A DNA stretch of 64,000 nt, taken from IMG/VR virus record IMGVR_UViG_3300028833_000003; one strand, given 5' to 3'. This document shows positions 5,101 through 32,039 of this stretch, in pieces (the stretch's first letter is position 1; each line of letters starts with the position of its first letter). A model generated the notes under the pieces. It did not search any database, had not been told where the DNA came from, and was given only the letters and a program-made list of their open reading frames with translations. A program made the position numbers and the translations under genes. Origin of the DNA: a virus.

Positions 5101-8100
5101 ATTTTAATTAAGAAAGTATCACCATCAGCAACATTTCTACCAATATTATAAGTCCATTTAACTGGAAAATAACGCGGTGAAACACCAGAACCTTTATCTT
5201 GTTGTGCAGTACCAGTACCAGTAATTAAATTATTAAATACTTTACTATGTACTGTATCACTAAATGTGCCATTAGTGCTATATACACCATTAAATTCATG
5301 TGATGCATCACCCAAGGAATGGGTTTTAGTTGCATATGAATAAATAGAACCCTAAGTAATATACAATGATTTAGATGCTGTATCCATCGCTGAACCAGTA
5401 CCAGGACGAAGAAGAATAGCATTAAGCGCATTAATTGCAACATTGCCATTACTTGCTGCGGCCATATATGCTTGTTCTGTCTTAATTGTACCATTAGAAT
5501 TAAGAGTGTACCAAGAAATCCTATTATTTGCAGCATTACTAATAGCATCATTAGCAGCAGTAAATTGAACATTGCCTCTAAATAATCCGCCTAAATCATC
5601 TATAATACGTATCCAACGAGTACCAACAACAGCGCCTGCATTTAAACGCTTATAATATAAATGATTTGTGCTACCAAAAGGTACTGCTAAATCAGTATAA
5701 TACCCATTGCTATTGCTATGATGCATTCTTAAAATATGCCACCAGGCTGTAGTTGGTGTATCATTTACTTGCGCGGCATGTCCCGCCGTACCATTAATAT
5801 CAAACCAACGCAAACCAATTAAATTATAATCAGTACCATCATTACGTACTAAACATTTAGCGCCTGTCGCAGTTCCATCTAAATCACCATGGAACTTATA
5901 AGCATATACAGTTTTCCATTGATGCGAAGTATCGCCTAAATCTTGAGCATTATCCGCGCCTGGACGCACAAGTCCAGTCTTATAAATAACCAACTGTTGA
6001 TTTGCACTATCTCCTGTGCCAAAGCCAACAGCCAATACAGATGCGGCATTATCAGGATAAGTAACATAATTCCAACTACTACGGCTAAATTTAATATGTG
6101 ATTCCGCAGCAGTACTTGCAATGGTTACTGTTTTTGTATTAGTTTCACCATTAATAGTTACTTTACCTTTAGCAAAATTAGCAACTTGCGTACCAGTAGT
6201 TGCGCGAATAGTATCCCAAGATCCAGATAATGCGGCTTCATAGACTTGAACATCTACCTAATTAGCAAACAATCTTATTCTATCAGGACCACTAGTATTA
6301 TTTACATCATTACCTTTAAATAATAATAATTCACTTTTTTCATTAGCTGTATCTTTTGGTCCATAAATAGATTCACCAATATAAGTATGATTAAAACCAG
6401 CAGGACCATCACCATATACACCATAAAATGCAATATAGTTATTGCTACCAGAGTCGGCACTAGCATAACCGTTTTGCCCGCTCCCAGTACCTGCGGTATC
6501 ACTACTACCAATTAATAATGGTCCTTGTAACCAAGATTTACCACCAGCGACTTTTAACGCATAATTTACATCTGGAGCAATATTAATACCTAAATGAGGT
6601 CTAATACTCCAACCAGTTGCCGCATGTCCTTGAATACGACTTGCTGCACTATTAGAACCATTATAGCTAATATAAAAATTAGAATCAGTAATATCTGCTG
6701 CCGCAGCTGTTGCATTTGCTGGCGTTGAATATGCTCCAACTAGCCAAACACCATTACCAGTACCATTAAGAGTGCCTTGCGTACCACCAAGAGTTACAAC
6801 AGACCAACCGTTTGAAGATCTATTAATTCTAATTCCTTCTGAGTATGAATTAGAAGTATTATAAGAACCATTAATAACAATATGGCCATTAACAGTAATA
6901 AGATTGGCACCATTAGATACTGCTGTTCCACTATCACCAAATTTAATACCTGAACTATTGATTTGTGCATATTGACCATTAGGCCCAACTTGGAACGTGC
7001 CGTCTGTGCGGAAAGTGCCGCTATCTTGATAAACATTCTTTGAACCGACGGTACGTATCCAAGTCTCATCAGTCATCTTCCAGCCGCCACCATTTGCAAA
7101 TATTAAAGTATTATTTGTTAATGCAGTATTAGTATTATAAACTTTAAAACCATTAACTGCGCTAATTTGATGATCGAAATAGTATGATTTATCTTGACCA
7201 TTTGTAAAATGTATCCAAGAGCCATTTTGCGCGCCAATTTCTACAGTAATACTATGATTACTTATTTTTAATGTACCACCACTAATAGTGTCAGACCAAG
7301 TATTATCACCGCGCCAAAATTTAGCTGTCGTGCCGCCTGATGTAGAAATAGTTGCGGCACTACCGGTAATGCTAATAGGCCACGTACCACTTGCGCCAGT
7401 ACCAGTTAAAGTAGGTGTGTATAAATTATAATTTTTATCATCTAAAATAGTTGCCCAAGATTTCCAAGGATTTGTACCATCAACTACATTCCAACCTGAA
7501 CGATAACGAATACCATATGCTTTACCTTGAGCAGCGCTAGCATTATGACTAATATAAAACTAAACAGCCCCACCATTACCAGCACGTATTACATATAACG
7601 CGCCATAGGCATATGGGGCATTTTGATTAGTCCCTGGATTATTAGTACCAGTAAAACCATTACTAGAAGCAACATAATACGCACCTGTCGTAGTAATATC
7701 CCAAGAGCTATCAACACCAATATTGGTAGGTGCTTTGATAATATCATCTAAAGTACCAGTACCGCCTAAGCTGATAGTTTTGTTGCCAATAGTAATGGAT
7801 GAATTTTCTAACTTACTATTAGCAATAGAACCAGCTAACATAGCATTAGTTACTTTTCCTGCCCCAATAGTAGTGGCAACACTCCATCCCTTTGTGCTAC
7901 TGCTTGACTCACCAGTTACGTCACCAGTTAATTTAACTGTTGTCCCAGAGGTAAAAGCCGCTGCGCTACCAGCCTTAGCAGTATAATCTTTATAGCTAAC
8001 AGTTACTCGATGCTCTGTTGGTATAATAGAAGCATCATCTGCCGTATTATCAATGACTGACCAGTCTTGTGAATAATCTCTTGTTAAATTGCTTGGCCAA

Positions 8101-9965
8101 TATTCAAACATATCAATATTAAAATGAATATAATATGCTTCTGGTAATACCGCAGTACCAATTAAACCCAGACCAATAGCAACATATTCTTGTCCATTTT
8201 CAGTATATGAAGATAAAGTAATTACTGGTCTATGTTCAGTGTTAGATGTTGCACTATAATTACAAAATTCACCGTTATAAATATAAAAAACCAAACCTAA
8301 TTCAGTTGGTAGTCCAGGATTATAATTATCCATATGGAAAATCAATTTTGGCATTACGTTTCCACTAGTATATGGAATTCTTGTTTTAATTAAAATTTCT
8401 TTTGGAGTACCAGATGTACCATAATCAATTACATTATGGAAATATCTACCAGTCTATGTTTTACCTGGCATAATTCCATCGGTACGGAAATGATAATTTG
8501 TACCATCATAATATACAATATAATTGCCGCCAGGCAATGTATAGTTTGAAGAAGAAGATGGCTTGCCGTTAATCCAAACCGGCTTATCTCCTGTTCCGCC
8601 AATATTTAATGTAAATGCGCCTTGATAAGTATTATCATAATAATGAGTATAAGGGAACTATTTACCTGCTGTTAATTGAAATTTCCAACCGCCAATCGCG
8701 ATTTTAGCTTGTTTAGCTGCGCCGCTAGTTGAAGTATTCTCATATGGGAACATATAAGAATATGTATTATTATAATCAGCATTAGATAAAATCCAATAAG
8801 TACCATTATATACAAAAAGTGCGATTGCATCAGCACGCAATTCATTAGTTGATGTTAAATTAGCAATATTCGCATTATATAATTTTTTAATATTTTTGGC
8901 GCCTTTACCATTAACATTTAAAGTTAAATTAGCAACTGCAGCAGTATTAGTATTACTAAATGAAACAACTAATATGTCACCAGTCTATAGCTAATTATAA
9001 TCTGCACACGTAACTACCTTTGCGGCAGTACCTGCAGCGGTCGCGCACGTACCATAAAAGATACGTCCATTACCGGAAGCTAAATTTAAATCACTTAAAC
9101 TATAACTATTGCCTAATTGTAATGTTTTATTATTTAAAATAAGATAACGACGTTCATCTTCTGGGGCAGGCGTCCAATATGTAGCTACAGGTCCGCGTTC
9201 CAATTTAATATTATTTAATTGTAAAAAATCACCTGCGGCATACTGATTAGTTGTTGTATTAGTACAATATAATCTAAAATACAACATTGTAATATTCGTT
9301 GGCAATACAAATGTAAATTCAACTCTTGTCCCAGTAACTGTTATTCCTTTTCTGGCAGATGTAATTTCTGCAACACGTTTGCTTTGCAAAGCAGTTGTAT
9401 CAAAAGTGCCAGCTGTCGTTTTATCTACATATAAATCTAAATTAATATAATAAGTAGTGCTATTAGTTGCACCTGATAATAATTTATAATCTAAATCAAA
9501 AGCAAGTGTGTATTCTGTATTAACAGCCAATGCGTCAAGATTATTAATTTTAATTTGATTAGCATTAGCAGTATTACTACTACTGCCTAAATATAAAGCT
9601 GCCTAACAAGCTGCGGTTTCTTTCAAAATTAAACCATGCGCATCGCTCGCTGTTAAAGTACAATTACTTGCTGGCGTAAAATGATATACACCATTTAAAT
9701 TTGGTAAATTATTATTATCTTTAAATAAAGTATTTTGTATTAAGTTTCTACCAGCAACATCTGTGCCGACTAAATAATCTGCCGCGCGTGCATTCAGTGG
9801 GATACGATTGACACCCACTTGTGCCTAGTTCGCATCAGCAATATCAATATAAAACTTGCCATCATCTTGCGTAAAATAGGCATACCCTTCCGTAGCCTTA
9901 TAAGTAGAGTTACCTGTTTTACCTAGTGCTGATGATGAGCCTTTTAAAATTTTAAAGAGTGCCAA
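2127..9965 (-). CDS. giant tail fibre protein (2,612 codons)
   Basis: TTG at 9965 lies 7 nt after GGAGGGG. Ten listed fragments (9603.. through 2127..2318) and all gaps lie in one checked frame with about 20 TAG. TAA at 2127. The N-terminus LFKILKGSSSALGKTGNSTYKATEGYAYFTQDDGKFYIDI is a fibre anchor motif. The body is long and rich in Gly, Ser, Thr and Asn, with a beta-rich appearance. Confidence 0.8.
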
Positions 9966-10040
9966 TCTTCAGCCCCTCCTATCTCATCAAACTCTATATA
10001 GTATTATAAAACTAATTAGATAATTTATTAAAAATAGTCC

Positions 10041-10079
10041 AAAAAAAAATAAGGGTTAAGTGAATACTCACTTAACCCT
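10041..10079 (-). terminator. rho-independent terminator
   Basis: On the minus strand: AGGGTTAAGTGA-GTAT-TCACTTAACCCT followed by TATTTTTTTTT. Confidence 0.85.
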
Positions 10080-10084
10080 ATATA

Positions 10085-10792
10085 TTAAGATATTTCAGTT
10101 ACATCATTCCAATAGCGACTTTCCATTAATTCTTTAAACTAACGAGTTAATTCGTTATAGTTCTGTAACATAATTAAATACTAACCATCTTCATAAATGG
10201 TTTCTTCTTCTGGAGTTGGTTGTAAAGCATCTAACCCATACAAAATTTTTGTATGTACTGCTTGTGTGCGCAAATTATATATGTAATGATAATTACTTGG
10301 ATCATCTTCATCTTCGGCTAAGCGATAAAATCTTAAACCAAATTGAAGAGGTCCAGCAACTTTTGTAGCAGCACCTTGAATTATCCAACCAAGTACCATA
10401 TAGCCAGGATAACTCGTTAAATCTTTAAATAAAATTGGCGAAACATGACTTTCACCGGCCGCATTTACATATTCAATAACTGCGGTTGTACGATTTAAAT
10501 CCATATCGTCAAAATAACGAGGTACTTTAAAGAAAATCGTTTCTGCTAAATGGTCTTTTTCTACACTTAAAAATTCTTTATAAGCAGGTTGATTTTCGAT
10601 AAGAATTGTTCGGGAATTTAAATCTACGTCAATTAAAGGAGTAGTAGTAGGACATACCCCGAACAACATCTTATCTTGATAATTCTACTCTATTGTATAA
10701 AGAAGGGCTTTTAATACATTTGCGGCACGATTAGTAATCTCAGGATTTGCTACAACTCCTACTCCAGTAGCAATTTCTTGTTGAGTTGCCAC
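10085..10792 (-). CDS. small paralogue of the preceding N-terminal domain (235 codons)
   Basis: GTG at 10792 lies 6 nt after AAGGAGGG. Three in-frame TAG. TAA at 10085 is followed by a strong terminator. It contains KDHLAETIFFKVPRYFDDMDL...LGWIIQG...GPLQFGLRF. Confidence 0.7.
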
Positions 10793-10809
10793 AATAATCC
10801 CTCCTTATA

Positions 10810-12795
10810 TTAAGTAATGTTAGGTGGATCTTGTGTAAGTTTATTAACTGCAGCATTGCATCTAATTTGAATAGTGCCTGCTTTAGAATAATCAGAGAAA
10901 ATCTCTTTATCAAACAATTGAGTGCGACCCTTAAATGTAAGCATATAGAAGCCTCTGCTACTATCGCGCTGGAAAGCAGGATGGTCTTGCAAGAATTTTA
11001 AGAAATCAACAGAAACCACACCAACGTTACTTGTCTGTGCGTTAAGTGCTTCAAATGAAGTAACATATTCGTCTTCGATAGTAATGTTGAAGGCTAACTC
11101 ACCAGCATCATTGGATACAAACTGCGCGGTAACGCCAACACTAGCTTTATAGTCATCTTTATTTGGTGCAGTTGCTTCATATGTGTCATCACCGATTTCC
11201 GCAGAAGCACGGAAATTCATAATCTTACATTCAACCTGAGTACCAGCGGCGTTCAAGTCAATGTCAAATGCAGGAGCAACTGGATACAATTGAGCATTTA
11301 CAGATACGCCTGCGCCCTTCGTTAATGAACTATTCTGATAGGTATTAGTAACATTAACTGTATATAAACCAGCTTCAGTTGGAGTATATTCTGCGGCAAT
11401 AGCACCATCAATAGCATTGTTATCTTTATACCATTGATAACTAATTTCGCCATTCTCATGGTCTTTCTTAGTTGCGCTAACACTAATGCTTTCTTTATCA
11501 CCAGTACGATTAATAACTAACTCAGTTGGCAATTCTTGTACTACATCAAAATCAGAAGCAGCAAGAATACTGGTCATATCACTATCAATCCAACGAGTTT
11601 CATACTTCCCAGCAGTTTTTTCAACCTTATTACCAATCTTGACATAATAGTCGCCGGGTACCTTGGTCTTTAATACGCTGTCCCAAATATTAGTAATAGT
11701 AGTAGTTGGTTCATCGCCCTCATTCTCTGCAGGAACAGTTTCAACACGTCTATTGATTGTATGATTGACAAGATTAGATTCATTAACTAAATCCCACTCT
11801 GGCCAACGCTCTAAGAAACGTGCTTTCATTTCTGAATCAGAAATATCATCAGCGATTGCAGCACCATTATAATAAAGTTTATAAACAACTTGTGCATCAA
11901 CAAATTGTCCTTTATTAGCTGCTGCGGCAGCATCTAATTCTGCAACAGTATTATCTTCACTTGGAGTAAGTACAACTTCATAATTTTGTACAATATTCTT
12001 TTCTCCGAAGCTCTGTACGCCAGCGCCCTTTGGATAATAATTCAAATGAACAATAGGTGCAGGCATCTGTAACAAACTTGCAGTTCCACTATAGCTTGGA
12101 CGATTATCTACAATACTAGACCAATCAGTTACATCTTCGGTAAAATCACCAGAAATAGTATTCTTTACAGCAACCTTTGCGGCCAATGTGTGCTTTTCAG
12201 CAACAACTACTTCATCAATGTTCTTTAAAATAAATGTAACAGCAAAATCAACTGTACCAGCTACTGAGGCAGGGCCTGACTCATCACCAGAAATGGCCCA
12301 ACCAAACCACATATGTTCATCATCATAGTCGATATAAAGCGCCTTATCAGTGCCAGATAATGTGCCGTTATGCCATTGAATTAAAACTGAACCATGTACG
12401 CCGGTATTTTCATCTAAACCAACACAAGCAGCCAAGTCCATTGTATCAAAGTAACGAGGTACTTCAAAGAATACAACTTCTGCGAGGTGGTCGCCAACAA
12501 CTGCAATACCATTCTTTTGGAAATCAGCTGGGACAGTAATAACACCGCTATTTGTATTAATAACAAAATACTGTTCATCAAATGGAACTCTCACATACAA
12601 AGGTAAGCGAGTCTAATCTATATTAGGCTTATTACGAATAATATCTAATGCTTCGTAATATTGAGACAAAGTTTCTACTTGTTGTAACCCAGAGTCAGCA
12701 GCCAATTGTTTTCCAATAGTCATTGGCTCTGCATTTTCATTCTCAAATAGAACTCTGTTTAAACCCCTAGTTAAGGATTCTTGAGTTACTAGCAT
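10810..12795 (-). CDS. receptor-binding/baseplate-upper-like protein (661 codons)
   Basis: ATG at 12795 follows GAGAAAGGAG. ORF 12613..12795 joins ORF 10810..12600 through a single TAG at 12613. TAA at 10810. The N-terminal domain GDHLAEVVFFEVPRYFDTMDL...WFGWAISG...GTVDFAVTF is paralogous to that of the next gene. Confidence 0.75.
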
Positions 12796-12821
12796 AGCTC
12801 CACTACTCCTTTCTCATAATT

Positions 12822-12849
12822 CGAGGAGTGCATTAAGATGCACTCCTCG
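12822..12849 (-). terminator. 12-bp hairpin downstream of the small gene
   Basis: On the minus strand: CGAGGAGTGCAT-CTTA-ATGCACTCCTCG. There is no clear U-tract, so it may be an attenuator or a stability element. Confidence 0.4.
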
Positions 12850-12884
12850 ATATCTATATACTTATCAAAAAATTATTAAATATA

Positions 12885-13100
12885 TTATACTACTTCGTCC
12901 CGCATACTAATTTCATACCAATTAGTTGCCTCATCTTCTGGCACGGTCACTGTAACCATTTTGCGCGTACCATCTGTTAATAACTTCCCAGCATCTGCGC
13001 GCAATCTAATCAAACGTACATAATATACATCTTCTAAGTGGATAGGAGTTTCTAACACCCCATTAGTTCCAAGATAGCGATAAATAACTTGACGTGTCAT
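12885..13100 (-). CDS. hypothetical small protein
   Basis: ATG at 13100 follows GGAAAGGAG. 71 codons with no TAG. TAA at 12885 is followed by a hairpin. Confidence 0.7.
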   Translation of the reverse strand: MTRQVIYRYLGTNGVLETPIHLEDVYYVRLIRLRADAGKLLTDGTRKMVTVTVPEDEATNWYEISMRDEVV

Positions 13101-13118
13101 TTGAGTATCTCCTTTCCA

Positions 13119-16100
13119 TTAAATATCTCCATTAGGAGTATAAATAATAAAGTCTGGCGCATCGACGCGAGTACCATAGGTAGGATTGCTGCTTGGAGAA
13201 GTGTCTCTTAAAGAACCCCACAACTAGCTACCATAAGAACCAGTCTGTTCATCAATTCCACCGATAATATCATTTCTACTATATTCTGATAAATCTAAGT
13301 ATAACATAATTGTTTTAGTTCTAACATCATTAGCAAACCAAGCAACCTGGCCATTATTATCTACAGGTGGATTAACAAAATTCTCACGACCTGCTTCACC
13401 AGTAAAGTCACGTCTAAATGGTGCTTGACTGCCATCTCCACCTTGACCATAACTTACTAATGCTGATGTATTAACTGGATTATCTACTGTACCAAATTCA
13501 ATAGTTTCGTAGCCAATATTTTCAAATGCTCTTAATCCAATCTATGAAATATTAACATTGGCAGTTAATACAAGACGTGTATTAGCAATATATCTTGCTC
13601 CGCCTTCTTTATTAGCAGCATCGTCTCTATTACGTAACAAACCAACTGAGTTCATTTGGATAAATGCTCTTGTGCCAATAACCGATGCATTAATTGGATC
13701 ATGCAATACTAGGCGTGTAGCATAAGCAACTGCGCCAGGTCCAATTACATTTAATGACTGTGGTATATCAAGATGACGTAAGTTAGGCATATAAGCAAAC
13801 GCACATGTACCAAATTCTGTAATCCGACAAGGATTTTGTTCATCATTCATACCTTCAAAGAAGATGTGAGTAATTTGCGCATTATGTGTCTGGCCATTCT
13901 CTACTGTTGCTGTTGGTACATTATCTTGGATAATACCATTGGCTGCCATCTTTGTAACAGTATAATTAACTGTTTCACCACCGCCAACATCAACAGTAAT
14001 TGTTCTTGGGATACAAATCTTACCGTAAGCTAATGGGCATCCCTTTTTAATACTAATAGAAACTTCAGTACCTTGAGCATTATTAGTAGCGATATTAAAG
14101 TTTTCTGTTGTACCAGGGATAGGATAATCATATACGCTTACTGTTTTGAATTGTGCGAAGAACGTAATTGGCTTATCTGTTGTTGGAGTACGAGTTGAAT
14201 TATAAGTATAATATACATCATTAGCTTCTGGTACTTCTTTTGTGGTCCATCCTAAGAAATGATAAGTCTGTGCCAATGGCAACATTGAATCATCCTTATA
14301 TGGATTAACTCTTGAGAATTGAATTGGCTCGCCTGCATAAGCAGTACCAGTTAATACATTCCCATCAAAATCAGTAGCAGGAGTAGTCGCATTAAACATA
14401 TACGTAATTAAATATGGTGTTTTAGAATAAACTGCAACTAATGTATAATTAACTAAATTGCCGCCTGTTGGTTGCAAAGATAAAGAAGACAAATTAACTT
14501 CACCCATGCTATTTGCAGGAAGGATAGTACCAGCATCAATTAAATTTAATGCCTCGGTTTTATCTAATTGAGATGCCTTGGCACGCCATTGCTCAACGGT
14601 ATATTGATTTTCGCCATCACCAGCAATAGCCCAACCCATAAAGTCATAATGCAAACGACGTGGTTTTTCAAAATTCTCTGAATAAGATACCTGTGCATTA
14701 CCAAATCCATTTGCATACTTTTGAGTGCCAAACTCATGCATGCTCTTACCTTCATCATCTAAGAATTCAATAAAGCGCGCACGATTAGCTTCTGTTACGT
14801 AATTTGCGGTAATATCAAGTTTATTGAAATTACCAGTAGCCTGATAGTAAGCAAAAATTTCTGCTTCATTTACTGGCGTACTTGAAGTATTATTGATATG
14901 TACTTTACCAGTAATAGTAGGAATTAATTTTTCATTCTTATTTGTAACACTATCTAGCAATGGACGGAAATGATAATTTTCAATGCTGCCTTGACTAATA
15001 CGGTCTTGGATGAAATTATTAAACAATGATAAATTAGTGATTGGGCTTTCACCTTTTTCAGTATCATATAGATATAATAAACCATCACGTTTATCTTGTT
15101 CAAATTGTGTAATATTAACACTAGGATTAATATTACCAGCACCAAAATAACGCACATATTTAATTTGATCTCTATAGTAATAATTTGCTTGCTGTGATTC
15201 ATCATAGCTTTCATCAACAGCTACTTGATGATAAGGTGTCCAATCAGCATTTAAAACTTGGATACGCAAATCTGCAGAAGTACCAGTGTGTGCCGTCGTT
15301 GGATTAGCAATACGTTCTCTCTTTAATTTTACCAAATAAGCTAGCATCTTATAAGTATCATAGCCTAATAAAGTATCATCCATTTGATAATATTGAATAA
15401 TAGAATTGTATTCATCTGGAATTGCAGAAGTAGTTAATGCATAATCTAACTTATCAGTTAAATCTTCTATATATAAACCTTCTTGATTATTTCCAGCACT
15501 TGTCTATGATTTGCTCGTTAAAATTCTAGTTAATTTCAATGGTGAAATCAAAGACAAATTACCAATAGTCTTTGGCAAATAAACTGTAGTTAATACATTA
15601 CCTGCAGGCATTGGCGCCTGTGCAATTTCAGTACCTAATAGTTTTAAAACTTCTAACTTCGGACAATCTTTAATATCTGGATCACCAGTTAATTGTTTTA
15701 AATTACTTAAATCAACTAAGCGTAATAATCCACGTGGTCCAATAGCAAAGCTGGTTAAATTATTGTTGTAATAACCTTCCCTATCATCACCAACTTTTAG
15801 CTCACGAATTCTGTCTGCAGAACCAAGCACAAATTCATTCAAATATTTAGGAGCTAAATCGCCTAAACTTGAAACATATTGTGGGCCTCTTACATAAGCT
15901 AATTGCTGCGTTAAAGCAACACCCAAAGATGCACGCTTACCAATTGAACTTGGTGGCTCAATAGTAACGTTTTCAGCAGTGCCGCCTAATTTAAATTTAA
16001 CACTTGGTGCAGCAGTTTGGTCATATAAGACTGTAACATACTGTGATAAATATGGTGTAATTGTAAATGTTGCGTTAGAATCAAATTGTTCATGGCCAAC

Positions 16101-19100
16101 CATATTGTCATCAGATGTTCTATCCTTATCATTTAAATTATAACGCATTTTAATTTGAGCACTTGTATTAATTGGGTCATATGCCGCAGCACTCCAGTGA
16201 GAATCAAGATAATTAAATCTATTACGAATTAAAGACTAACGTTGTAATGAACGGTCACCTTGTAAGCAATAGAAATAATCAGATGTGATAACTGTTGAAT
16301 GGTCAGGAGCAACATATCCTAAACCATTAATAGCTGGAGCAATATATTTATAAAATGCATCGTAGTTCTTCATAGATTCAGACCATCTGTTACTACTTGC
16401 AGTTTCATAATATTGCGTAATCGCTTCTTGTGTTAAAGATTCACGAATTGCTTTATACAAGTTAGCAATTTCACGAGAGAAACACAACTGAACGTTATTC
16501 CATAAAACCGAACCATTACCAGAGAAAATAGAGTCTGTAGTTCCACTGGCAGAATAAACCTCAATATTAGCGACACCATTGTCGTCAAATACGGTTCTTG
16601 TTGTTAAAGGAGGAGTTGCATCAACATCATAATCCCAATAAACCTGACCAGAGTTATTAATACCTAACTGCGTATCTAAGTCATAGAAAATAGGATACCA
16701 GATATAATCTCCGCCCTCACGTTCAGGACCCCAAGAAGCAAGCATCATATTCTTTTGACGAGAGTCATATAGTAAGAAGAATTCAGTGAATACAAAATAG
16801 AAAAGTACATAAGCCAAATTTAAATGTTCGCTAAATTCATTGCGGAACTTAGCTAAGCGGTATCTGTCATTATCAATAGTAAATTTCTCATATAATACGC
16901 TAGCATCAAAACCATCAATATCAATACTTAAATTTAATGTTATATATTTGACCCAATAAGTTGAATCACTATTATTAACATTAACAAAGGTAATACCTAA
17001 GTCATTTGCTAAATCAACGACATGAGAACCATAATGCCAACGCCAATTTGGTTCTTCATTAGTACCATCGTTACTATAAATAAAGCCTTGCTCACCAACA
17101 TATTCTTCATTAGTATGTTCTTTATCATCGGTTTCTAAAGATTTTAAGAAACTCCAAATCTTACTTGAATCAGTAATTTCAAAAGTAATGTCTGCAGAAT
17201 CTTTTAGGTTACTATTTTTAATTTCACCAGTTTTTGGATCAAGAGTTAAATGGTCTGTTAAATACGCACCCTTTTTAGTTACATGATTTGCAACTGTAAT
17301 GGTAGCAGGAGTGTATTCATTTGTATCACTATCATAATGATAATATTCTACACCTGGTTCATACTCAGTAGATAATGTACGATAATATTTTGTACCAATA
17401 TCACGTACTGGCTGAGAAGCTTTTCTGCCAATATAAGAAGTAACGTCAGTCTAACGAATCCAATCCCAAAGTCTATGCAAGTTTTCAGTACGATTTACCC
17501 ATTCAAAGGCATTACCATCGCCATCTTTACCAGAAACAACACCTGTACCTACCATTTCTGGATAACGCTGTTCAAAATGTTCAGAAATTTCATAATATTG
17601 AACTTCTTGTCCATTAATAGTAGTTGTACTTGTTGCTAACCAGTTATCTGCCACAGAGTCATCTTGGAACTTACCATGACCAGCTTGATTTTGACGGAAT
17701 TCCCAACATTCACAAACATCAGCATATGTAGGATTGGTAATTGTTTTCAATGTACCAGTCTTCATATTTTCTTTATAGTTAGGATCATCTTCATCATCAT
17801 TGACTTTAGTTACTTGCAATGTGTGCAAATATTTATGAGTTGCTGGAATTACAGAAGGATTATCATCAGATTCTTCTTGTGTAGGATCAAAATCTGGATT
17901 AGCCTTTTCCTCATAAGTAAAACCAAAAGTGTTTTCACATTCTTTATGAGTATTAATATTGTAACGTCCAACAAACTTAATGTCGCCTGCGCCATTTTCC
18001 CAGAATAATAAGATTGGGAAACCAAAAACAGTAGTACGATAATTTTCAGTAGCACCTTCTGGATCTAATCTCTTTAATGGGTGCCGCAAATCATAACCAG
18101 CACCTGAATAATTACCTGCCAAATAAGCAACTAAATTTGCGCCGGGAGTATTATGAGAAGAAGCACTATCCATATAATCAGCTTTTAATACTAATGACTT
18201 ATTTTGCATACTGAATGCGAAATCTTGTCCATTAATTTTAGTACCAATAACTATTGTACCTTTATTCTTATTTGGGTCAGTAGCATTAGGTTTAAACTTG
18301 ATATATTTATTTTTTACTTTTAAATCCGCTTCGGTAATTGCAATATTGGCTTCATCACCATCCCACCAACAAATTTGGAATGGATTTGGTTCTGCTACTT
18401 TATCTTTATCATTCCAGTCTGCTGAACCTTGCTTTAATTTAAGCTAGAAATTACGACGTGGATAACCTTGTGAAGAAGTACCTTGTACGTCAATAGTAAC
18501 ATTTGTAGCTTTCCAACAACGTTCTGGATCAAATGGATCATAATAACGAATATTACATCCGTACTTATCGCCCTTTTTATATGGCAATTCATCCATTAAT
18601 TTTTTAACGCCGTCAATTTTATCAGTTTTAATTACCATAATAGGAATTAATTTTTTTGCTTTAGCGTTAGCGTATTCGATAAAGTTTTGCTTAGGATCTA
18701 AAATACCCTGGTTTTTATCATAACGCTCTTTTTTAATTCTCAATGTTGGGCCATCTGCGGTCCAGTTTTGAGTAATACTACTGAAAGGCAAGTCATTCTC
18801 ATAAATACGAATATTATAAAGGTCAATATCGCAATAATCAGAATAAATATATAAACCTTCACGACGTGTATTTGGATCCAAATTCTGCGCAAATGATTGC
18901 GTAAATGAAGAGTCTGCTGGGAAGGTTAAAATATTTGTAATAACGCCATTAATATAAGCAAAAATTACAGGCTTACCTAATGTTTTTGTTGAACCATCTT
19001 CCATCTTAAATGCTGGATTTTGAGAAACAACAAAAGAAACTTTAACACGAACATCATCTGTATAGCGTGCATTAACCAACAAAGATTTAGATAATGCCAA

Positions 19101-21164
19101 GAATGCTTCTTGAGTACCTAAGATTAAACCTTTATCAGAAGCATAATACTGTAAGAACGTGCCGCGGCCGTTAGTAGTAACTGTACGAGCAAGAACTTCA
19201 CCACCAGTAAGCGGATTTTCTTGAGGTACTAAATTACCATCTTGATCAACAGCAAGACCTTTCTCATTAGCATGGTATTTACTCTCATCATAAGCAAATG
19301 CTTCTTGCAAATCGGAATCATAATATTTATATTTTCTTTCGCCATTCTCATCTACTTCAGTTAATTGCTCATAAGTTAAATAAACTGTTCTTGTTTCAAT
19401 TAATCGTGAATAGTCTGTTGCATTATGAATAGCAAATTCAAATTCATAAGTTTGGTTACCGCCAGCACTAAAAACTGAGCAAGGAATAAATACAGATGCG
19501 CCATTAGATACTCTTAAACAAGTATTACCATCATCATCTTTCAACCAACCATTATTGTACCAGTTAAAATTATTTAATTCAATTGGTGCATTTTCATATG
19601 ATTGAGTTGTAAGATTATATGTCTTTAATATATTGTTGCTTGCTTTCTTTGCTGTATTATTCCATTGAGCACGCTTAATTTTTGATTCATTATTAGAACG
19701 TCCAGTAGCAGATAATTCTAATACAGCATCTTTTTCAGGTTCAAGAGTGTATTGTGAATTACGTGTTATTGTTACTTCAGTCGTCCAAGAAGTTTGACCA
19801 GCAACAATAGTAAATACGTTTTGTCCTAATTGATAATTACCAACTTCCCAATAGTTATAATCATTAGGATTATATGCTACATCTAAAGAACTAACTTCTT
19901 CACCATTAACATAGAAGAAGACTTCTGTAGAAGCATTATTAGAAGGATCAACTACCATATAAGGAATGGTAATTAAAGTATAGTTTTCAAAAGTCGCTTC
20001 ATGTTGGAAAGGAGACCAAATAATTGGTGTTAAATTACCAGTAACGAACCAACCGATTTCATAATGTAAGCCACTTGTAATAGGAATGGTTACACCATTT
20101 AATGTCATTGTCGCTTCGATGTCTAATGAATGATTACCGTGTGCGGCGTCAATAAACAAATCTGCCAAAGGAACCGCACCACTGGCTGAAGTAACGTCTC
20201 TTGTAATAGTGCGTTCTGTCGTAAGTCCGCGATCAATGGTGGCTGATATTTTCATATTTGACGTATCAATTAAAGCATTAAAATCAGTTTGACTCATAGA
20301 AGTATCATAGGTTACAGTATATGCATAATCAAAGTCATCTAAGGATTCTGCATTTTTTAACTCACGAGGCTTCCAGAAAATTTCATTTGCAACCAAATGA
20401 ATATCAATAACTTGAACATTTTCCCAACTCTTAGGAGATTTACGTCCATTAACAGTTGCATATAGTTTTAAAATATTAGTACCTACACGCAAATAGTTAT
20501 AAGGAATTTCAACCGTAGTTTCACCAGCATTAACATCGCAACGACCAATCATCATGGTTTCACGGAATGGTGCTACTGCTTCTTCGCTAGCATAGAACTC
20601 TACATATAAAGTACCATTATGACCTTCACGTGTTAAGCTATCTAAGATACGAGCTTTCAAAGTAATGCTTGTACCAGAAACAACCATTGCTAATGGACTT
20701 TCAGTAACTAATACGGTAACACCAGAAGATTGCTCGCCTTCTCCACCACCGCCACCAGTACCAGCAACTAAAATTTTTGTAACATAGCAATTTTCATCAT
20801 CAATATCTATAATACGATATAATGAACCATCTTTGTTTAAAATAATATCATTCGCTCCATAGGTCTCCTATTTAACTCCCATTTCTTCATATGCTTCAGC
20901 AATACTTGAGCGAGGGAAGATATTTGATGCTGCACCGTGACCACTTGGAGCAGGCAATAAACTTTCTACTTGTGAGCCATAGACAAATTTTATCCCAGAT
21001 GCGCCAACAGAGTGTCTTAATCCGTCAGCATCATCAAAATAAAGACGCTCTGTGTCTGTAGTAAAATATACAGCGCCAGGAGTAGTTGGTAATCCATCAA
21101 TCGCATGTTCAGTACCGCGATAAACAGAAAACGCATCTTGGGAAACAGAAGCTTTACTTGCCAT
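13119..21164 (-). CDS. giant fibre/adhesin-like protein (2,681 codons) with a CotH-like region, leucine-rich repeats and Listeria-Bacteroides-type repeats
   Basis: ATG at 21164 follows GGAAAGGAG. ORFs 20868.., 18444.., 17451.., 16236.., 15504.. and 13542.. plus a 13119-13541 tail form one checked frame with only 7 TAG. TAA at 13119. CotH-like motifs: IDVQGTSSQGYPRRNF, LVLKADYMDSASSHN, YPIFYDLDTQLG. LRR_5-like: ITEFGTCAFAYMPNLRHLDIPQSLNVIGPGA. Listeria-Bacteroides repeat-like: HYDFMGWAI, TYHFLGWTT. Confidence 0.75.
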
Positions 21165-21187
21165 ACTTGTACTCCTTTCCTCTAAAT

Positions 21188-21223
21188 ATCATAGCCATAA
21201 GAATGAATTCTTATGGCTATGAT
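21188..21223 (-). terminator. 17-bp perfect palindromic hairpin between fibre genes
   Basis: ATCATAGCCATAAGAAT-TC-ATTCTTATGGCTATGAT on the minus strand. The U-tract is weak (ATTT). It lies between TAA 21239 and the SD at about 21175. Confidence 0.5.
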
Positions 21224-21238
21224 AATCTATATAATTAA

Positions 21239-22966
21239 TTAAAATGAACCCCAAACTAAATTAATAGCAACACCATTACTATTTGTGCCTGCACTTAATG
21301 CCAATGAAGAAGATTCAATATAATGTGATGTCTTCTTATTGTTAGAACCATCGGCCAAAGTAAAGGTACTAATTAATTCAGCAGAATTTACATCAAGATC
21401 AACACTGTTGGCAATGTTAGTGATACCGCTACGAGTATCAGTAATAGTCATTGTCTCAGTTGTTAAACCATTAATATGACCAGAAGAATCATAAGTAACT
21501 CCAGTAACAAATGTTTTTTGCATTTGTACAACGCCATTAGTAGCTGTTGCGCCTACCATGGTTGAAGTAGAAGTAACTGGAGTAAATGTACTAGCAGCAT
21601 GTCCAACACTTACAACTCTACCGGCACCAGAGCCAGTTGAAGATACAGTAAATTTATTATCAAAATTAATAGTACCATAAGTATTATTATTACGAATTAA
21701 TGTAATTTGGTTAGAATCGCTATCTGCATTGAACATATAAGTTGCAGTAACGTCTTCACCTGATCTTACATGAGTCCATTCAATACCATTCGCTGGTAAA
21801 TAACCAGTAGTAGCATTTTCTGAATATCCATCTTTCGCACTCGCAATAACAATATCACCTGGTAAATATTGGTCTGCGCCAATAGTGAAACCTGACTAGA
21901 CAGCATAAGTATCGCCAATTGAAATATTAGATGTCGGTAAAGCCGTAGTTGTAGAAGTCAATCCACCTTTAAACGTCATCGCATTAACTGCGCCTAATAA
22001 AGAATCAACTTGGCTTGTACTATAAACATCTAAATCCCATGTTAAAGTAGTAACACGAGACGTGCCATTACCAGTAGAATTTTCAGTTGCTTTAACAGTC
22101 GTTTTACTACCAGCTTGACCATACGAAATTTTTGGTGCCAATTTTGCACCAGACATATAAACAGTGCCTTGAGGAGTACCACTAGAAGGTAAAGAAGCAT
22201 ACCATTTACCTTGTAAAATACCCTCTTCACCATCATAAGTTAAATACTCATCTTTACCAGTGGTAATAGTAACTGTACCTTTGGTATTTGTTGCATTAGA
22301 CTCACTTAAACTAACGGCTGCACCGCCAGCACCTTTAATAGTAATATTACCAAGATTATCTCCACTACGGGTATTAGCTTGACCATTGCCAATTTTATAC
22401 TCGGTTCCGATACTCAATAAAGTACCACCAGTTACCGCGGTAGCAGTTAATTTTGCAGTATCTACTTCTGATTCTGCCGTAATTGCAGGAGAAGCAGTAG
22501 TGCTACTACTGTCCTAGGTAAATTTAACAGTACTGCTATCAACTAATCTATAATTAGTGCTTCTTAAAACATCATTACCATTCTTTAATGCTTGAGTAAT
22601 AGTAATTTGCCCACCATCGGTATCTAAAGATGTTATAAAAGCACTGACATATTCAGTAAATTCTTTTTGAGCATTAATCTGCTTCCATCTGGTTCCATCC
22701 CAAGCGCACAAAATATTTTCTGCTGCGATATAATAAATTGCATCTTTAGCTTTTGTATTACCTTGTGTATCAGCTTGGAATGTAGCCCATGACTATGTTA
22801 CTCTGACAGTATCGCCCAAACGAATACGTTGGAGACCTTTTGTGCCGCCAAAGTCATGGTCTAAATATATGGCTTGTTCATCAGTAGTAATTAAAATCTA
22901 ACCATCTACTAGAGCAGCGCTGCTTAGATTATCTAACAAGCCTTTTTTAAAGACTACATTACTCAT
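21239..22966 (-). CDS. tail fibre protein
   Basis: ATG at 22966 follows AAAGGAG. Four in-frame TAG. TAA at 21239. The N-terminus contains ILITTDEQAIYLDHD. The distal part is rich in Ser, Thr and Gly. Confidence 0.7.
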
Positions 22967-22983
22967 GTACCATTCATCTCCTT

Positions 22984-24237
22984 TTAATTATTAATCGCTT
23001 CCCAGCGAAGCACAACCGCATCAACAGCAGTCTATACATATTCTTCTACAGTATTATATTGAATATTGTTAATAGTTAAATCTCCAATACGAGAATCCAT
23101 ACCACCAGCACCGCCAGCAGTAACCCATTCGCCTAAAGCATTTAATACTAAAGAAGATTTATTGCCATTGCCACTATACACCGGAACAAGACCACTAGCT
23201 ACGCCATTAAACGTTGGTAAAGTAACTGTATTATTAGTTTTAATTAAATTAATGTTTCCGACTTTAACATTTGAAATATAATCTGCAAATAATCCTGTCG
23301 CAGGTTTCATCTCACCAGAAACACTATCTAATTCAGCAGGCTTACCAACTAATGATTCTAAAGTTGTAATTTTAGAATCTACTGCCGCAACCTCGCGGTC
23401 AGTTGCATAGCCAGATAATACATCAGCAGTTTCAATCCACTCAGTGCCATTCCAAACATAGTTTTTATTATCAACAGTATAAACATCGCCATTAACAGGA
23501 GATAATTCATTTAATTCTTCTGCTTCTCCACGATATGTAAAAATTGAACCAACTGTTGATTCTAACGCAGAAATGCGCTGAGTATTACTAGCATTTAGAA
23601 CTTGTAAATCTGCAACCTCTCTCGCAAGGGCCGAAACATCTTCCGCAACTACCCATCCAAAAATTAAATTATTGTTATAGGTAATAATACGAGGAACAAG
23701 CCCATCGCGCCAAGGATGAGTGGCATCTACTGTAACCTTAACGTATTGTTGAGTTGAAGTATTATAAGTATAATACTCAACTTCAAATCCTTTAAGACTT
23801 AAAGCATTGTTATGATTGACAATAGTTTCATCATCAACGGCACCCAAAGCACTTTCAGAAAGGGCAGTTTCCAGATTTTTACCATTAGAAAGAATAACAT
23901 TCTAAGCAGCAATTCGCTCATTTAAAATAACCCAAGTAGTACCAGTCCATAAACCAGTCATAATTGTATTATTTTTTCGCCATAAAACAATATCACCAAC
24001 TACTTTTTCTGCATCCGCGCCAGCTGCTAAAATAAATACATCCGCTGCCGTTGCTGTGCTAGGTACAATCGCAGTATAATTAAATACACGCTATTTCGTT
24101 GAAATAAGCGTAGTACCCTTATATAATTCACCAGTGTCAGTAATAAAATATAAAATATTATTTAACTTTTCTTCTAATGCATTATAATCCGCTTTTGTAC
24201 CAACCCGAAATAGAACACGCTCTTCGTTGTCAGGCAT
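22984..24237 (-). CDS. tail fibre protein
   Basis: ATG at 24237 follows AAAGGGAGTG. Three in-frame TAG. TAA at 22984. The N-terminus LFRVGTKADYNALEEKLNNILYFITDTGELYKG is a typical fibre anchor motif. A coiled-coil-like middle follows. Confidence 0.7.
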
Positions 24238-28809: not shown

Positions 28810-31616
28810 AATGAGGTTCCTCCTATATTTTTACGTGTCGGTTTTTTCCCGCTATCTGCATAAGTTACACCAGTTGTATAAGCATGATTATTTAATATCA
28901 AAGTTTCATCTGCTAAAGAATTGTCTTTATACGCATCAATATTATAAATATCAATATCTGATAAAGCAGATGTTATATTGCCCCAAATTGCTTTCAAGGC
29001 TTTAGAATAATCATATAAAGCACGATTATATGTAATAATTAATTCATTGTAGTGCGTAACCCACTGATACTGTAAAGCATGCAAACTTTCATCGGTATTC
29101 TCCCAACTTTGTGGAGAATGAATAAAAGTTTGTAATTCTCGTTTTGCGCGAATATAATTATCATAGTAATGTTGAGTATCATCTCTATGAGTTTGGTAAA
29201 TTGCTTCTTGTGTTTGACAAGAAATTTCTACCAAAACACCATTACCAGCAGTAATTTTCGTTGGAATTGATTTAAACTATGTAAATAACTAAGTCCCTCT
29301 TAAAGAATCTAAATTTAAATTAATTACACTGCCATCTTCAAACTAAAGCTAAGCGGTATAATCAATATGGGAACCTGCGCCATATCCATAATAATAATAC
29401 GTATTTTCATTTTCTTTATCTGGACCTTTTGTCACAAAAATGTGTGGATCCATTGTGGTTCCTACACTATCTAATACAAAATAAGGTATTAATATATCGC
29501 CTCGATAATATACTCCATCATGATACTATAATGTAGTATTATCTTTAATATATTCAGTTGCCTAAACTGACTAACCTGTAAAACGTGAAAATTTTAATTT
29601 ATATAAACGTGAAATTGGCAACATGCAATCCAATAAATTGACTTGTGGCCCTAAGCCCCAACGTTGAATACAAAGTTCTTCTACTGGGTTACAATAATTT
29701 ACGGTATTAAAATCAGATTTTGTAATTGCGCCTACCGTTACTACTCCATTATATAAAGTATCGTAAATGGAAGCTGGCTCCTAAACACGTCCAATAGTAA
29801 TCTCTTTAATTAAAGACCCTGTTGGTAATGTTAAAGCATAATACCCAGTTGCGCCAATAGTAATATGTCGATAATCAGTAGTTATACCATCTACCCCAAC
29901 GATACGTAAATTAAACATAGTGCCAGGAACACAATTTTCAATTTTTAAAGAGCCAACACCCTCATATACATTTAAACTTGGTGTTTCTACATTTTGATTT
30001 TTAAATACGTCAGTTAATGAAATAGTATAATATGTAAATGTTTGATGTACCGCGGCACTAGTAGAAGTACCATCATAAGGTGCTTTATATAACCCAAATT
30101 TAATTAAATCATTTAAATCATCAGCATTACCGCATTCACTAGCTTGTGACTAAAACGTATGTAGCATACGTGAAACACTATCATTAGGTGTTAATGAACT
30201 ATTCATTAGATATACAATATAATTGCCTTCACCTGGGCTTTTTAATAATTTTGGTTTGCCATTACTTAACCACTATAAAGCTGTCATATTAAAGCGTCGT
30301 TCAAGTGTAAGATTTTCATCTGTAATATCTGTTTCATCTTCATGATTACCATAGCCTAGTTCTTCTCTTGAATAAAAATAGCCATCTCTATCCATGAGAT
30401 AACTTAATAAACCAGATAGCTAAAATTCTTTATAATCTACAACGCCATTTCTAAAATATTTTGGATATTTAGAACCTATTGTATTTTTTTTCGATTCATT
30501 CAAAGTGCGTTTAAATGCAGTAACTTTAGGATTAAAACGTATATCTAATTGACGTTCTCCATCCCATAAAAATAAATCTTCAAAATATGCAGTTACATCA
30601 TTTGAAATAGTACGACGTGAGTAAAGACCACGACTATTATACTGTCGCACTGAATAACGATATGTTACACCATGTTCTACCATAAAATCAGTATAAAAAT
30701 ACTAACCAGTAACCATATCTTCTGTTAAAGAAAAATTAAATAATTTGGTCCAACTACCAAAATTATCTTTTGAACTAGAACGTGAAAATTCATATCGTCC
30801 AGCATTTGTGTCAAAAATAGCATTATATTTAATTTTGATAAGACCATTGTCATAATCTAAAACTGCTTTTAAAGGTGCGCGAGTATCACTTGGCAATCCT
30901 GTCCCGGCAATAATAGTATACCAAGGAGAAGATATTTCCTAGAATGAATTAGTCTATACTACATAACGTAAAAGATAGTATTCATCAACAATTAAAATTT
31001 TACCAAGAGACCAATGATCTTCACTACGCCCAGCTTCTGTATCGCCATATTCAGCATGAGGCTACCATCCACTAGATTCTATTAATTCATATGATGATGA
31101 ATATAAATCAAATTTATATTGATAAACAACTTCCGTGGTATCACTATTTAAATATTCACCAGTAAATTCTTGGAAGTCATAATTATTACCAAAAGAATCT
31201 AAACCAACTATATTGACAGTAATATCATTTGTACATTTAACAATAGCAACAGTCGAATAATATCCACAAGCGTTATCTTTATCTATAAAAGCAATTTGTA
31301 TTTTATATGATTGGCCTATTGATAATCTCTGTCGCCAAGGTAATAAAGAAAATACTGCAACTAATGAATCTTCCGCGGTACTTGTACTAGTAATTGGATA
31401 TATGTTTGGCGCTTCAGTATTAACATTTAAATCTACTTCACATAAAATGGTATCAGTATTTGTTGTACGTAATCTCATACGCAAACCTGTTACTTGTGAT
31501 GCCGCAACCGCACGATTCATTGAAAAAGGGACCCTTAATAAGGGTCCCTTTGAATAAATCATTGAAGGTAAAGTACCAGCTATAACAGGCGGATAAAGCT
31601 TTGTTGTAGCCGGCAT
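28806..31616 (-). CDS. baseplate structural protein (936 codons)
   Basis: ATG at 31616 follows GAGGAGGAG. ORFs 31062.., 30702.., 30420.. and 28806..29234 are joined in one checked frame by about 15 TAG. TGA at 28806 overlaps the next ATG (ATGA). Confidence 0.75.
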
Positions 31617-31619
31617 CGC

Positions 31620-32009
31620 TTACTCCTCCTCATCAATTATCAATTCTAAACCTGCAACCTGTTTAGGTGTAAATTCAAATTTTTCAAAGTCCTCAGCTTT
31701 AAGTTTCTTCAAATCTACATCTACTGTAAAATCATTTAAAGCTTTTCTGGCTTCTTGACATTCTTCAATCATGTCCTCTTTAATTTTGAAAACTCCAGGC
31801 GCAGATTCAACAAATTGCTGCGTCTCAGGATCAATCTCTAAATACTTCATTGCAAATTCACGTTCTTGTTCAGTGAAAAATTCATTTTCCTTTTCTAATA
31901 GTTTAATATTCTTAGCAAATACTAAACTAATCTTAAAAGGTAATTTCATCTCTTGCAATTCACGTAAAGTATTAAGTAAATCCATTGTTTGAATACTATT
32001 TAAAGTCAT
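31620..32009 (-). CDS. hypothetical small acidic protein
   Basis: ATG at 32009 follows TAGGAGGAAAAGG. 129 codons with no TAG. TAA at 31620 overlaps the SD of the next gene. Confidence 0.75.
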   Translation of the reverse strand: MTLNSIQTMDLLNTLRELQEMKLPFKISLVFAKNIKLLEKENEFFTEQEREFAMKYLEIDPETQQFVESAPGVFKIKEDMIEECQEARKALNDFTVDVDLKKLKAEDFEKFEFTPKQVAGLELIIDEEE

Positions 32010-32039
32010 ATCCTTTTCCTCCTAAAAGTAGTTATAATA

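Follow-up and report, generated by a model that had tools for sequence, protein, structure and literature searches.

The 64,000-nucleotide stretch of viral DNA deposited as IMG/VR record IMGVR_UViG_3300028833_000003, referred to here as the window, encodes a giant protein of 2,681 residues which is very probably a virion protein of the tail-fibre type with a genuine CotH fold. The gene encodes one continuous protein in which seven TAG codons are read as sense. From the N-terminus the protein comprises an attachment motif, a glycine-rich linker, a beta-rich region, a Laminin_G domain, the CotH kinase-like domain, a beta-sandwich, leucine-rich repeats (LRR), two Flg_new-like repeats and an LRR_5 tip (Table 1). 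The family to which it belongs is very large, and residues of the kinase catalytic type are kept almost universally in its members.

The first-pass annotation of this DNA, made from the letters alone, had proposed a single gene of 2,681 codons with seven TAG, and the frame confirms it. The frame opens with an ATG at 21164 on the minus strand and closes with a TAA at 13119-13121. The stop codons within it number exactly seven, at codons 99, 907, 1238, 1643, 1887, 2541 and 2647, and all are TAG with no TAA and no TGA. The whole window is TAG-recoded. With TAG readthrough, minus-strand open reading frames (ORFs) of at least 150 codons cover 60.8 kb of the 64-kb window as against 25.7 kb without it, and dropping TAA or TGA as stops brings no comparable gain. 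The long ORFs of the window (1-64000) are all on the minus strand.

Reading the TAG codons as true stops, with eight separate ORFs in a row or a decayed pseudogene as the result, is scarcely credible. A list of ORFs made with the standard code does split the gene into fragments of 98-747 amino acids, and no tRNA gene, thus no suppressor tRNA, has been found within the 64-kb window. However, the related phage phAss-1 keeps its suppressor tRNA-CTA genes in another part of the genome (PMC10607447), and the same TAG pattern is seen across the window and in an ortholog encoded by a 126-kb metagenome contig (L003), whose four in-frame stops are likewise all TAG, at positions that differ from those of the window gene. 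One of the seven interruptions falls inside a conserved CotH motif, QGTSS..RRNF-TAG-LKLK. Relatives of 2,100-2,900 residues carry sense residues at six of the seven positions, the seventh (codon 2647) being one at which no relative aligns, and of the 73 family positions without variation in 19 relatives (mean column identity ~22%) the window protein retains 72.

The residue inserted at TAG is ambiguous in the ortholog alignment of the fibre gene: TAG 1238 pairs with Gln in the ortholog, and of 10 TAG positions compared across orthologs, 2 have a Gln partner and 4 have Lys, Arg or His. The assignment of TAG to Gln has therefore been taken from the description of phAss-1 (PMC10607447). TAG codon 907 (18444-18446), the one in the N-terminal CotH motif RRNF-TAG-LKLK, is matched by Lys in 126 of 136 aligned relatives.

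The CotH domain has roughly double the usual length (~810 as against ~320 residues) because of three insertions, at residues ~913-989, ~1101-1147 and ~1253-1423, which amount to ~290 residues altogether. The intact window protein has no Pfam CotH match (PF08757, gathering cut-off 23.8 bits); all its matches at E<=1 are to LRR_5 (E=0.005) and CBM_X2 (E=0.07), and a PHROGs scan has assigned it to one family without functional annotation, phrog_14959 (E=5e-58). When the insertions are taken out, CotH is the sole Pfam match of the window sequence (E=1.9e-4, 21.5 bits). Residues 841-1665, searched against 5.8 billion proteins, have 22 relatives, several of them with PF08757. The homolog P0003 matches the Pfam CotH profile at positions 2-320 of 322 with 48.6 bits (E=1e-12), P0005, P0007 and P0010 score 40-43 bits, and P0024 and P0025 are above the cut-off too. 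The window protein aligns with the CotH domain of P0003 in four collinear blocks (E=2e-36, 4e-12, 2e-10 and 2e-5) which are split by the three window-specific insertions, and a family consensus anchored on the columns of the window protein reaches 26.8 bits against Pfam CotH, above the cut-off.

The fold has been approached through a compact homolog, P0006 (765 residues, CotH and LRR), for which an AlphaFold2 (AF2) model was obtained with a predicted local distance difference test score (pLDDT) of 80.5. The only significant PDB match of this model in Foldseek is 5JD9, the CotH kinase of B. cereus, with an E-value of 4.6e-8, a probability of 1.00 and a target-normalised template modelling (TM) score of 0.69. 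Since the model is that of P0006, the CotH-fold result reaches the window protein by homology, the similarity of the two being E=2e-45. The third insertion (1253-1423) is modelled with pLDDT ~90-95 in parts and has no PDB match.

These results bear out the CotH-like module that the first-pass annotation had read from motifs, through homologs and a family consensus that pass the Pfam cut-off and a model that matches 5JD9, with the window protein itself below the cut-off. The quoted motifs have all been found, namely QGTSSQGYPRRNF(TAG)LKLK at residue 894, LKADY at 993, FVGRYNIN, DSRQKN at 1467, YPIFYDLDTQLG at ~1490, HYDFMGW at 2172 and YHFLGW at 2301, and the limits given for the CotH part (16240-18520) and for the LRR and repeats (13560-16150) are about right. 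Of the checks that it had proposed, the profile search has given a mixed outcome and the structure prediction, through a homolog, a positive one: the family consensus passes the Pfam profiles CotH, LRR_5 and Flg_new, with the window sequence below every one of these cut-offs, and structure prediction has recovered the CotH fold by way of the P0006 model. The catalytic-type residues D1467-x4-N1472 and D1495-x-D1497 are present in the window protein.

An exhaustive HMMER search with residues 1239-1642 against 1.84 billion cluster representatives has identified 1,013 relatives at E<=0.001, of which 609 pass E<=1e-10 and 87 pass E<=1e-30. The 146 best relatives have a median length of 2,306 residues, and 107 of them exceed 2,000. 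In BLAST comparisons with these 146, the N-terminus is common to ~65, the core of lectin and CotH domains to ~110-140 and the C-terminal extension (1900-2500) to 70-95. The closest relative, P0050 (2,602 residues), shares 53% identity over 2,503 aligned residues. Judged from these alignments, the full architecture is common to a large family which includes proteins encoded at the tail loci of other phages.

The sequence used for the mapping of catalytic residues, taken by us to be that of B. subtilis CotH, matches Pfam CotH over the whole profile (E=7e-99). Its segment NYD228GFVHN233Y...PWD251YD253 corresponds to LYD1467SRQKN1472M...FYD1495LD1497 of the window protein, and the D-x4-N spacing and the [W/Y]DxD motif are equal in the two, given this B. 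subtilis sequence. Alignment with hhalign has paired residues 198-218 of B. subtilis CotH with 1437-1457 of the window protein over 21 columns, and gapless extension sets D228 on D1467. The order of elements in the P0006 model (helix, DSRAKN, beta-hairpin, DLD) is that of the alphaE helix, catalytic loop and DFG motif of protein kinases. The mutants D228Q and D251A of B. subtilis CotH are inactive (PMC7821199). By this mapping the catalytic Asp and Asn and the metal-binding Asp of B. subtilis CotH appear to be kept in the window protein.

These residues are retained widely in the family. Of the 146 best relatives, 144 have the pattern D.R.KN and 132 the full D-x4-N...[WFY]DxD, and across the 19 relatives referred to above the Asp-x4-Asn, Asp-x-Asp and QGTSS motifs are invariant along with >30 other positions of the CotH domain. 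Many of the homologs P0012-P0020 end abruptly within the CotH domain, near DSRAKN or near the DxD motif after it. These endings suggest that the source genes come from stop-codon-recoded phages and were clipped by standard-code gene calling, which fragments such genes and so hides their architecture.

Several results weigh against the assignment of the protein as a fibre with a working CotH domain. No direct Pfam match of the window protein reaches any curated cut-off. AF2 prediction of its own C-lobe piece (1239-1642, without the N-lobe; pLDDT 68.6) has no significant PDB match, the best Foldseek E-value being 0.21. Neither the profiles of the phage family nor the CotH domain of P0003 find a CotH chain among PDB sequences, and a PDB sequence search with the CotH region of the window protein yields no CotH chain either, the matches in these searches being noise from the glycine linker. 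A hidden Markov model made from the matches of the CotH-region profile in ~170 family proteins (201 aligned segments) gives B. subtilis CotH no higher a score than 2,000 shuffled copies of it. As profile-to-sequence methods fail to link the two families, the residue mapping rests on motif spacing, the 21-column hhalign result and fold topology. The likeness of the N-terminus to a fibre anchor is at the level of a motif.

We favour, with moderate confidence, the explanation that this is the gene of a giant tail fibre, or of a receptor-binding protein attached to the baseplate, with a CotH domain that is working or that binds nucleotide or phosphate. The N-terminus would dock the fibre on the baseplate and the glycine linker would provide flexibility, while the lectin, LRR and LRR_5 modules may bind glycans or proteins in the envelope of a Gram-positive host. 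The LRR_5 tip would occupy the place of the C-type lectin which, in Hankyphage-type relatives, is diversified by a diversity-generating retroelement (DGR). The CotH domain may be a functional phosphotransferase dependent on nucleotide and metal, or at the least a site that binds nucleotide or phosphate, and not a dead scaffold. It could act during fibre assembly in the infected cell, where ATP is present, much as Bacillus CotH phosphorylates coat proteins in coat assembly, or else at the host surface during adsorption.

Catalytic activity of the domain is put forward only tentatively on these sequence grounds, with chances somewhat short of even. The more specific proposal of an active CotH phosphotransferase on the virion, which would phosphorylate a host envelope component at adsorption or partner fibre proteins at assembly, is rather doubtful. 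If it is true, attachment or tail morphogenesis would include a phosphorylation step in phages of a family of >1,000 protein clusters. The question raised by the gene is whether phage tails carry a kinase, and what its substrate would be.

It is also possible, though we hold it to be unlikely, that the domain is a pseudo-enzyme in which the kinase fold is kept as a binding or spacing scaffold of an adhesive fibre with no phosphotransfer. ATP is scarce for a fibre that works outside the cell. The three insertions could form the real binding surfaces, and the CotH domain is flanked by binding modules, the lectin on one side and the LRR on the other. By analogy, the CotH proteins of Mucorales, which at the surface serve as ligands of GRP78 and of integrins (PMC9973265), would speak for the same role. 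Dead enzymes, however, usually lose their catalytic residues, and here these motifs are invariant in the 19 relatives and present in 132-144 of the 146. Because the Asp/Asn/Asp set is retained near-universally, catalysis or nucleotide and metal binding is favoured over a dead scaffold.

The position of the genes in phage genomes and the content of surface-binding domains bear on another explanation, that of a virion-carried effector, ejected so that its kinase domain can phosphorylate host proteins inside the cell, which is not a receptor-binding fibre at all. Kinases need the ATP of the cytoplasm and the catalytic residues are conserved, and a role of this kind has been suggested by Roux et al. 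for DGR-linked relatives (10.1101/2020.04.01.020958). We nevertheless consider it improbable. The compact homolog P0010 is encoded directly 3' of the baseplate genes Sheath_initiator and Phage_Wedge1 on a contig of the myovirus type, which is the classical position of a tail fibre. In Hankyphage p00 the homologous region is part of a 6.7-kb ORF located after the minor tail protein, with a DGR variable repeat at its end. Members of the family are thus encoded in phage tail modules, as read from gene order and homology, and the window gene itself stands among genes with a fibre-type N-terminal motif. The Laminin_G, LRR, Flg_new and LRR_5 domains, and the DGR-diversified C-type lectin tips of the relatives, are of kinds usual in surface-binding proteins, and 2,681 residues of folded beta-rich modules are unlikely to pass the tail tube.

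Table 1. Features of the giant fibre gene, its product and the ORF that follows it (positions in the window)
Feature	Position	Strand	Residues	Remarks
Giant fibre gene	13119..21164	minus		2,681 codons + TAA; 7 in-frame TAG sense codons
Shine-Dalgarno sequence GGAAAGGAG	21172..21180	minus		7 nt before the fibre ATG; read straight from the sequence
N-terminal attachment region (putative)	20760..21164	minus	1-135	motif YRGTE..G..YFTTDT..LYFD, kept in family consensus
Gly-rich linker GTGGGGGEGE	20730..20765	minus	~134-145	GSGGGG in relatives
Beta-rich region	19725..20726	minus	~147-480	sub-threshold matches only
Laminin_G_3/concanavalin-A-like lectin domain	18615..19724	minus	~481-850	~80-aa insertion 589-670
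CotH kinase-like domain	16170..18599	minus	~856-1665	three insertions
Insertion domain in CotH	16896..17408	minus	1253-1423	~170 residues, mixed alpha/beta; closest relatives only
Catalytic-loop-type motif D1467-S-R-Q-K-N1472	16749..16766	minus	1467-1472	invariant in both family alignments
D1495-L-D1497	16674..16682	minus	1495-1497	putative counterpart of metal-binding Asp in B. subtilis CotH WD251YD; invariant in family alignment
Beta-sandwich, then first short-repeat LRR solenoid	15495..16169	minus	~1666-1890
Conserved region without Pfam match	14775..15494	minus	~1891-2130	common to ~90 of 146 best relatives
Two Flg_new (Listeria-Bacteroides)-like repeats	14130..14774	minus	~2131-2345	YDFMGW 2173, YHFLGW 2301
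BspA-type LRR_5 domain	13485..13967	minus	~2400-2560	best stretch 2447-2502
C-terminal tail	13122..13484	minus	2561-2681	poorly conserved; relatives' coverage near nil past residue 2600
71-codon ORF	12885..13100	minus		own Shine-Dalgarno sequence; start 20 nt beyond the fibre stop

The N-terminal region (1-135) has no direct Pfam match. Both upstream neighbours open with the same motif as the fibre gene, G...[ILV]Y[FI]TTD[TE]..[LI]Y, and one of them, of 417 residues, matches Pfam Phage_tail_C (E=7e-6). BLAST among the N-termini of the three consecutive fibre-like genes is not significant. The fibre-type anchor that had been assigned to the N-terminus in the first-pass annotation is accordingly retained as a shared motif, with neither a Pfam nor a significant BLAST match behind it.

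The region that follows the linker had been described as Ig-like (immunoglobulin-like). It is beta-rich and probably of this type, with weak matches below the thresholds: CBM_X2 (E=0.015) for the window sequence, and Ig_VWA7 (0.006), Calx-beta (0.005) and Big_3 (0.04) for the family consensus. The lectin domain next to it was missed at first. For the family consensus Laminin_G_3 (PF13385) scores 31.4 bits against a cut-off of 27.6, at profile positions 3-150 of 151; the relative P0029 reaches 27.3 bits and P0009 E=8e-4, and the window sequence alone has no Laminin_G_3 match in Pfam. Every domain that had been named in the early list is upheld, for the most part at the level of the family and not by direct matches above threshold; the list lacked the lectin and did not tell apart two distinct LRR regions, the solenoid at ~1666-1890 and the LRR_5 tip. 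Residues ~1666-1890 align with residues 455-700 of P0006, which are modelled as a beta-sandwich and a solenoid with one strand per repeat. Homologs show weak LRR_EndoS and LRR_4 matches in this first LRR region, and matches in BFVD are named 'Leucine-rich repeat protein' and 'Internalin-like protein'.

Flg_new and LRR_5 are typical of the surface proteins of Firmicutes and Bacteroidota. Flg_new (PF09479) scores 15.1 bits (E=0.026) for the window sequence against a cut-off of 27; the family consensus, with 32.5 bits, matches in two stretches, one near each of the motifs at 2173 and 2301, and one of the 19 relatives has a match (E=2.4e-7). LRR_5 (PF13306, cut-off 27.7) matches the window sequence at 2447-2502 with 23.0 bits (E=8e-5), the ortholog P0023 with 30.3 bits and the family consensus with 62 bits, and it is found at E<=0.001 in 15 of the 19 diverse full-length relatives, the best with E=3.7e-89. 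Both repeat types, as first proposed, are thus upheld through the consensus and the relatives.

The C-terminal ~800 residues, in a word-indexed search of the 5.8 billion proteins, have two relatives, both of them fragments of the fibre family. The idea that the C-terminal part is a rare extension, drawn from these two, was overturned by the exhaustive search, in which 70-95 of the 146 best relatives share residues 1900-2500. The small number is therefore a limit of sensitivity and not a measure of rarity.

These results also bear on the suggestion of the first-pass annotation that the design resembles a bacterial surface adhesin grafted onto a phage anchor, taken here as a recent capture of the C-terminal half by the phage. 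The kinship of LRR_5 and Flg_new with bacterial surface proteins would speak for it, and so would the low TAG content of the gene, which would be in line with a fibre module acquired more recently. The graft is very improbable and is not supported, because the architecture is shared from end to end across the family, phage proteins included, and a syntenic ortholog in the TAG-recoded contig L003 aligns over residues 1-2569. The only relatives of the C-terminal ~800 residues in the word-indexed search belong to the fibre family, residues 1900-2500 are common to much of it, and TAG codons are found along the whole gene, the C-terminal part included.

The scarcity of TAG, which had been noted from the start, is statistically clear: TAG makes up 7 of 98 Gln-type codons (TAG, CAA and CAG) of the fibre gene (7.1%), as against 272 of 835 (32.6%) for the rest of the genes in the window (Fisher p=1.7e-8). 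The neighbouring gene of 661 residues is likewise TAG-poor, at 3.8% of its Gln-type codons. This low share would be in keeping with a distal fibre module that came in later, through recombination with a phage in which recoding is less advanced. It is no evidence for capture from a bacterium, as the L003 ortholog is recoded too. In most other genes of the window TAG accounts for 20-75% of the Gln-type codons and CAG is almost unused. A gene of 360 residues (57977-59059; phrog_2729, 'virion structural protein') and one of 351 residues (62879-63934; phrog_4088) have no TAG at all, with CAG:CAA ratios of 9:2 and 12:2, respectively; they are probably the two most highly expressed structural genes of the window.

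Proteins of comparable design have been described before. Wu et al. (2018) have reported DGR targets of ~2,000 residues with CotH and Laminin_G_3 motifs ('category f1'), which are probably phage proteins (PMC5758913). The viral DGR target of 2,284 residues (PC_00012) of Roux et al. was modelled with a CotH-like kinase domain, and a manipulation of host signalling was suggested (10.1101/2020.04.01.020958). Such proteins 'are currently unstudied' according to Benler et al. 2021 (PMC8008677). Macadangdang et al. (2024) have described Bacteroides variable proteins of >2,000 residues ('domain group 3') with motifs of the CotH-kinase active region beside carbohydrate-binding motifs and LRRs (10.1101/2024.11.15.621889). 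The P0006 model has 28 viral matches in BFVD at E<=0.001. Some of these proteins already bear the name 'Spore coat protein' or 'CotH kinase protein', and gp353 of Bacillus phage G and proteins of crAss-like phages (cr124_1) are among the 28. The fibre design of CotH, lectin and LRR is thus already known, and the window gene is therefore an added member of a described kind.

The giant DGR targets (the Hankyphage p00 ORF 31489-38226, f1, PC_00012 and group 3) share with the window protein a length of >2,000 residues, the order lectin-CotH-LRR and a location beside tail genes. In tblastn comparisons the CotH region matches Hankyphage with E=5e-19, and the whole window protein matches the Hankyphage locus with E=8e-28 (residues 1435-1872) and 3e-9 (691-1090). 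The tip of the window protein consists of Flg_new-like repeats and a BspA-type LRR_5 domain, whereas that of the DGR targets is a C-type lectin. A search of positions 9000-23000 of the window, which included no scan for a reverse transcriptase, found no direct repeat pair of at least 40 nt involving the fibre gene. On account of its LRR_5 C-terminus and of this result the gene is placed outside the DGR-linked subgroup. Further, the window phage is TAG-recoded and like SPbeta and phAss-1, whereas theirs is a temperate phage of Bacteroides. The design is therefore not tied to DGRs or to Bacteroides phages, being found here in a TAG-recoded phage whose relatives infect, or are predicted to infect, Firmicutes.

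Compact phage CotH fibres of ~1,300 residues (P0003, P0005-P0011) have in common with the window protein the N-terminus, the glycine linker, beta-rich modules and the core of Laminin_G, CotH and LRR. The window protein adds to these the three CotH insertions, the insertion in the lectin and ~790 C-terminal residues. The Bacillus spore-coat kinase CotH (B. subtilis; B. cereus 5JD9) is alike in fold, by way of the homolog model, and in the Asp-x4-Asn (D228/N233) and [W/Y]-Asp-x-Asp (D251/D253) motifs. It differs in sequence (~12% identity) and in size of the domain, and it is a free cytoplasmic enzyme of 42 kDa, whereas the window domain is embedded in a predicted virion protein. The CotH invasins of Mucorales (Rhizopus CotH2, CotH3 and CotH7) also display a CotH-family domain extracellularly, theirs attaching to the target cell (PMC9973265). 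They are eukaryotic proteins with glycosylphosphatidylinositol (GPI) anchors or signal peptides, and their MGQTNDGAYRDPTDNN-type ligand motif is absent from the window protein.

The source of the DNA appears, from protein similarities, to be a TAG-recoded gut siphophage that is kin to phAss-1 and to SPbeta-like Enterococcus phages. The 351-residue protein (62879-63934) shares 50% identity with a protein of phAss-1 and 35-36% with proteins of Enterococcus phages EF1 and H1. The phage phAss-1 is a gut phage with TAG read as Gln and a predicted host in Eubacteriales (PMC10607447). A crAss-like origin, first suspected from the TAG recoding, was rejected on account of the proteins of the capsid region, which match phAss-1 and SPbeta-like phages. 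Megablast of the fibre gene against 50,697 phage records gave no match.

Contig L003 encodes the ortholog in a matching gene order, with 47% identity over 2,468 aligned residues (43% in tblastn, over residues 1-2569 of the window protein). Upstream of it are relatives of the window genes of 794, 417 and 575 residues, and downstream relatives of the 71-residue ORF and of the genes of 661 and 194 residues. The 71-codon ORF is 63% identical to an ORF at the equivalent site after the ortholog in L003 and in contig L004; from its position it is a conserved partner and a candidate fibre chaperone or assembly factor. It is followed by a hairpin with an 11-bp stem (12822-12849). A perfect hairpin with a 14-bp stem, CATAGCCATAAGAA-TTCA-TTCTTATGGCTATG (21190-21221), separates the stop of the 575-residue gene from the fibre gene's Shine-Dalgarno sequence.

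Three more giant ORFs are found on the minus strand, at 42343-55869 (4,508 codons, 99 TAG), 32040-38690 (2,216 codons, 36 TAG) and 2127-9287 (2,386 codons, 18 TAG). They show no BLAST likeness to the CotH fibre; the first probably encodes the tape measure protein, and the other two probably encode tail or baseplate proteins. The downstream minus-strand genes 10085-10669 and 10810-12795 have a common paralogous domain (BLASTP E=1.8e-11), and the likeness extends to the DNA, where 59 nt are repeated with 75% identity (10497-10555 and 12434-12492), and both genes are kept in L003 and L004. The downstream protein of 661 residues contains a Hoc-like Ig segment (phrog_4069, E=9e-6).

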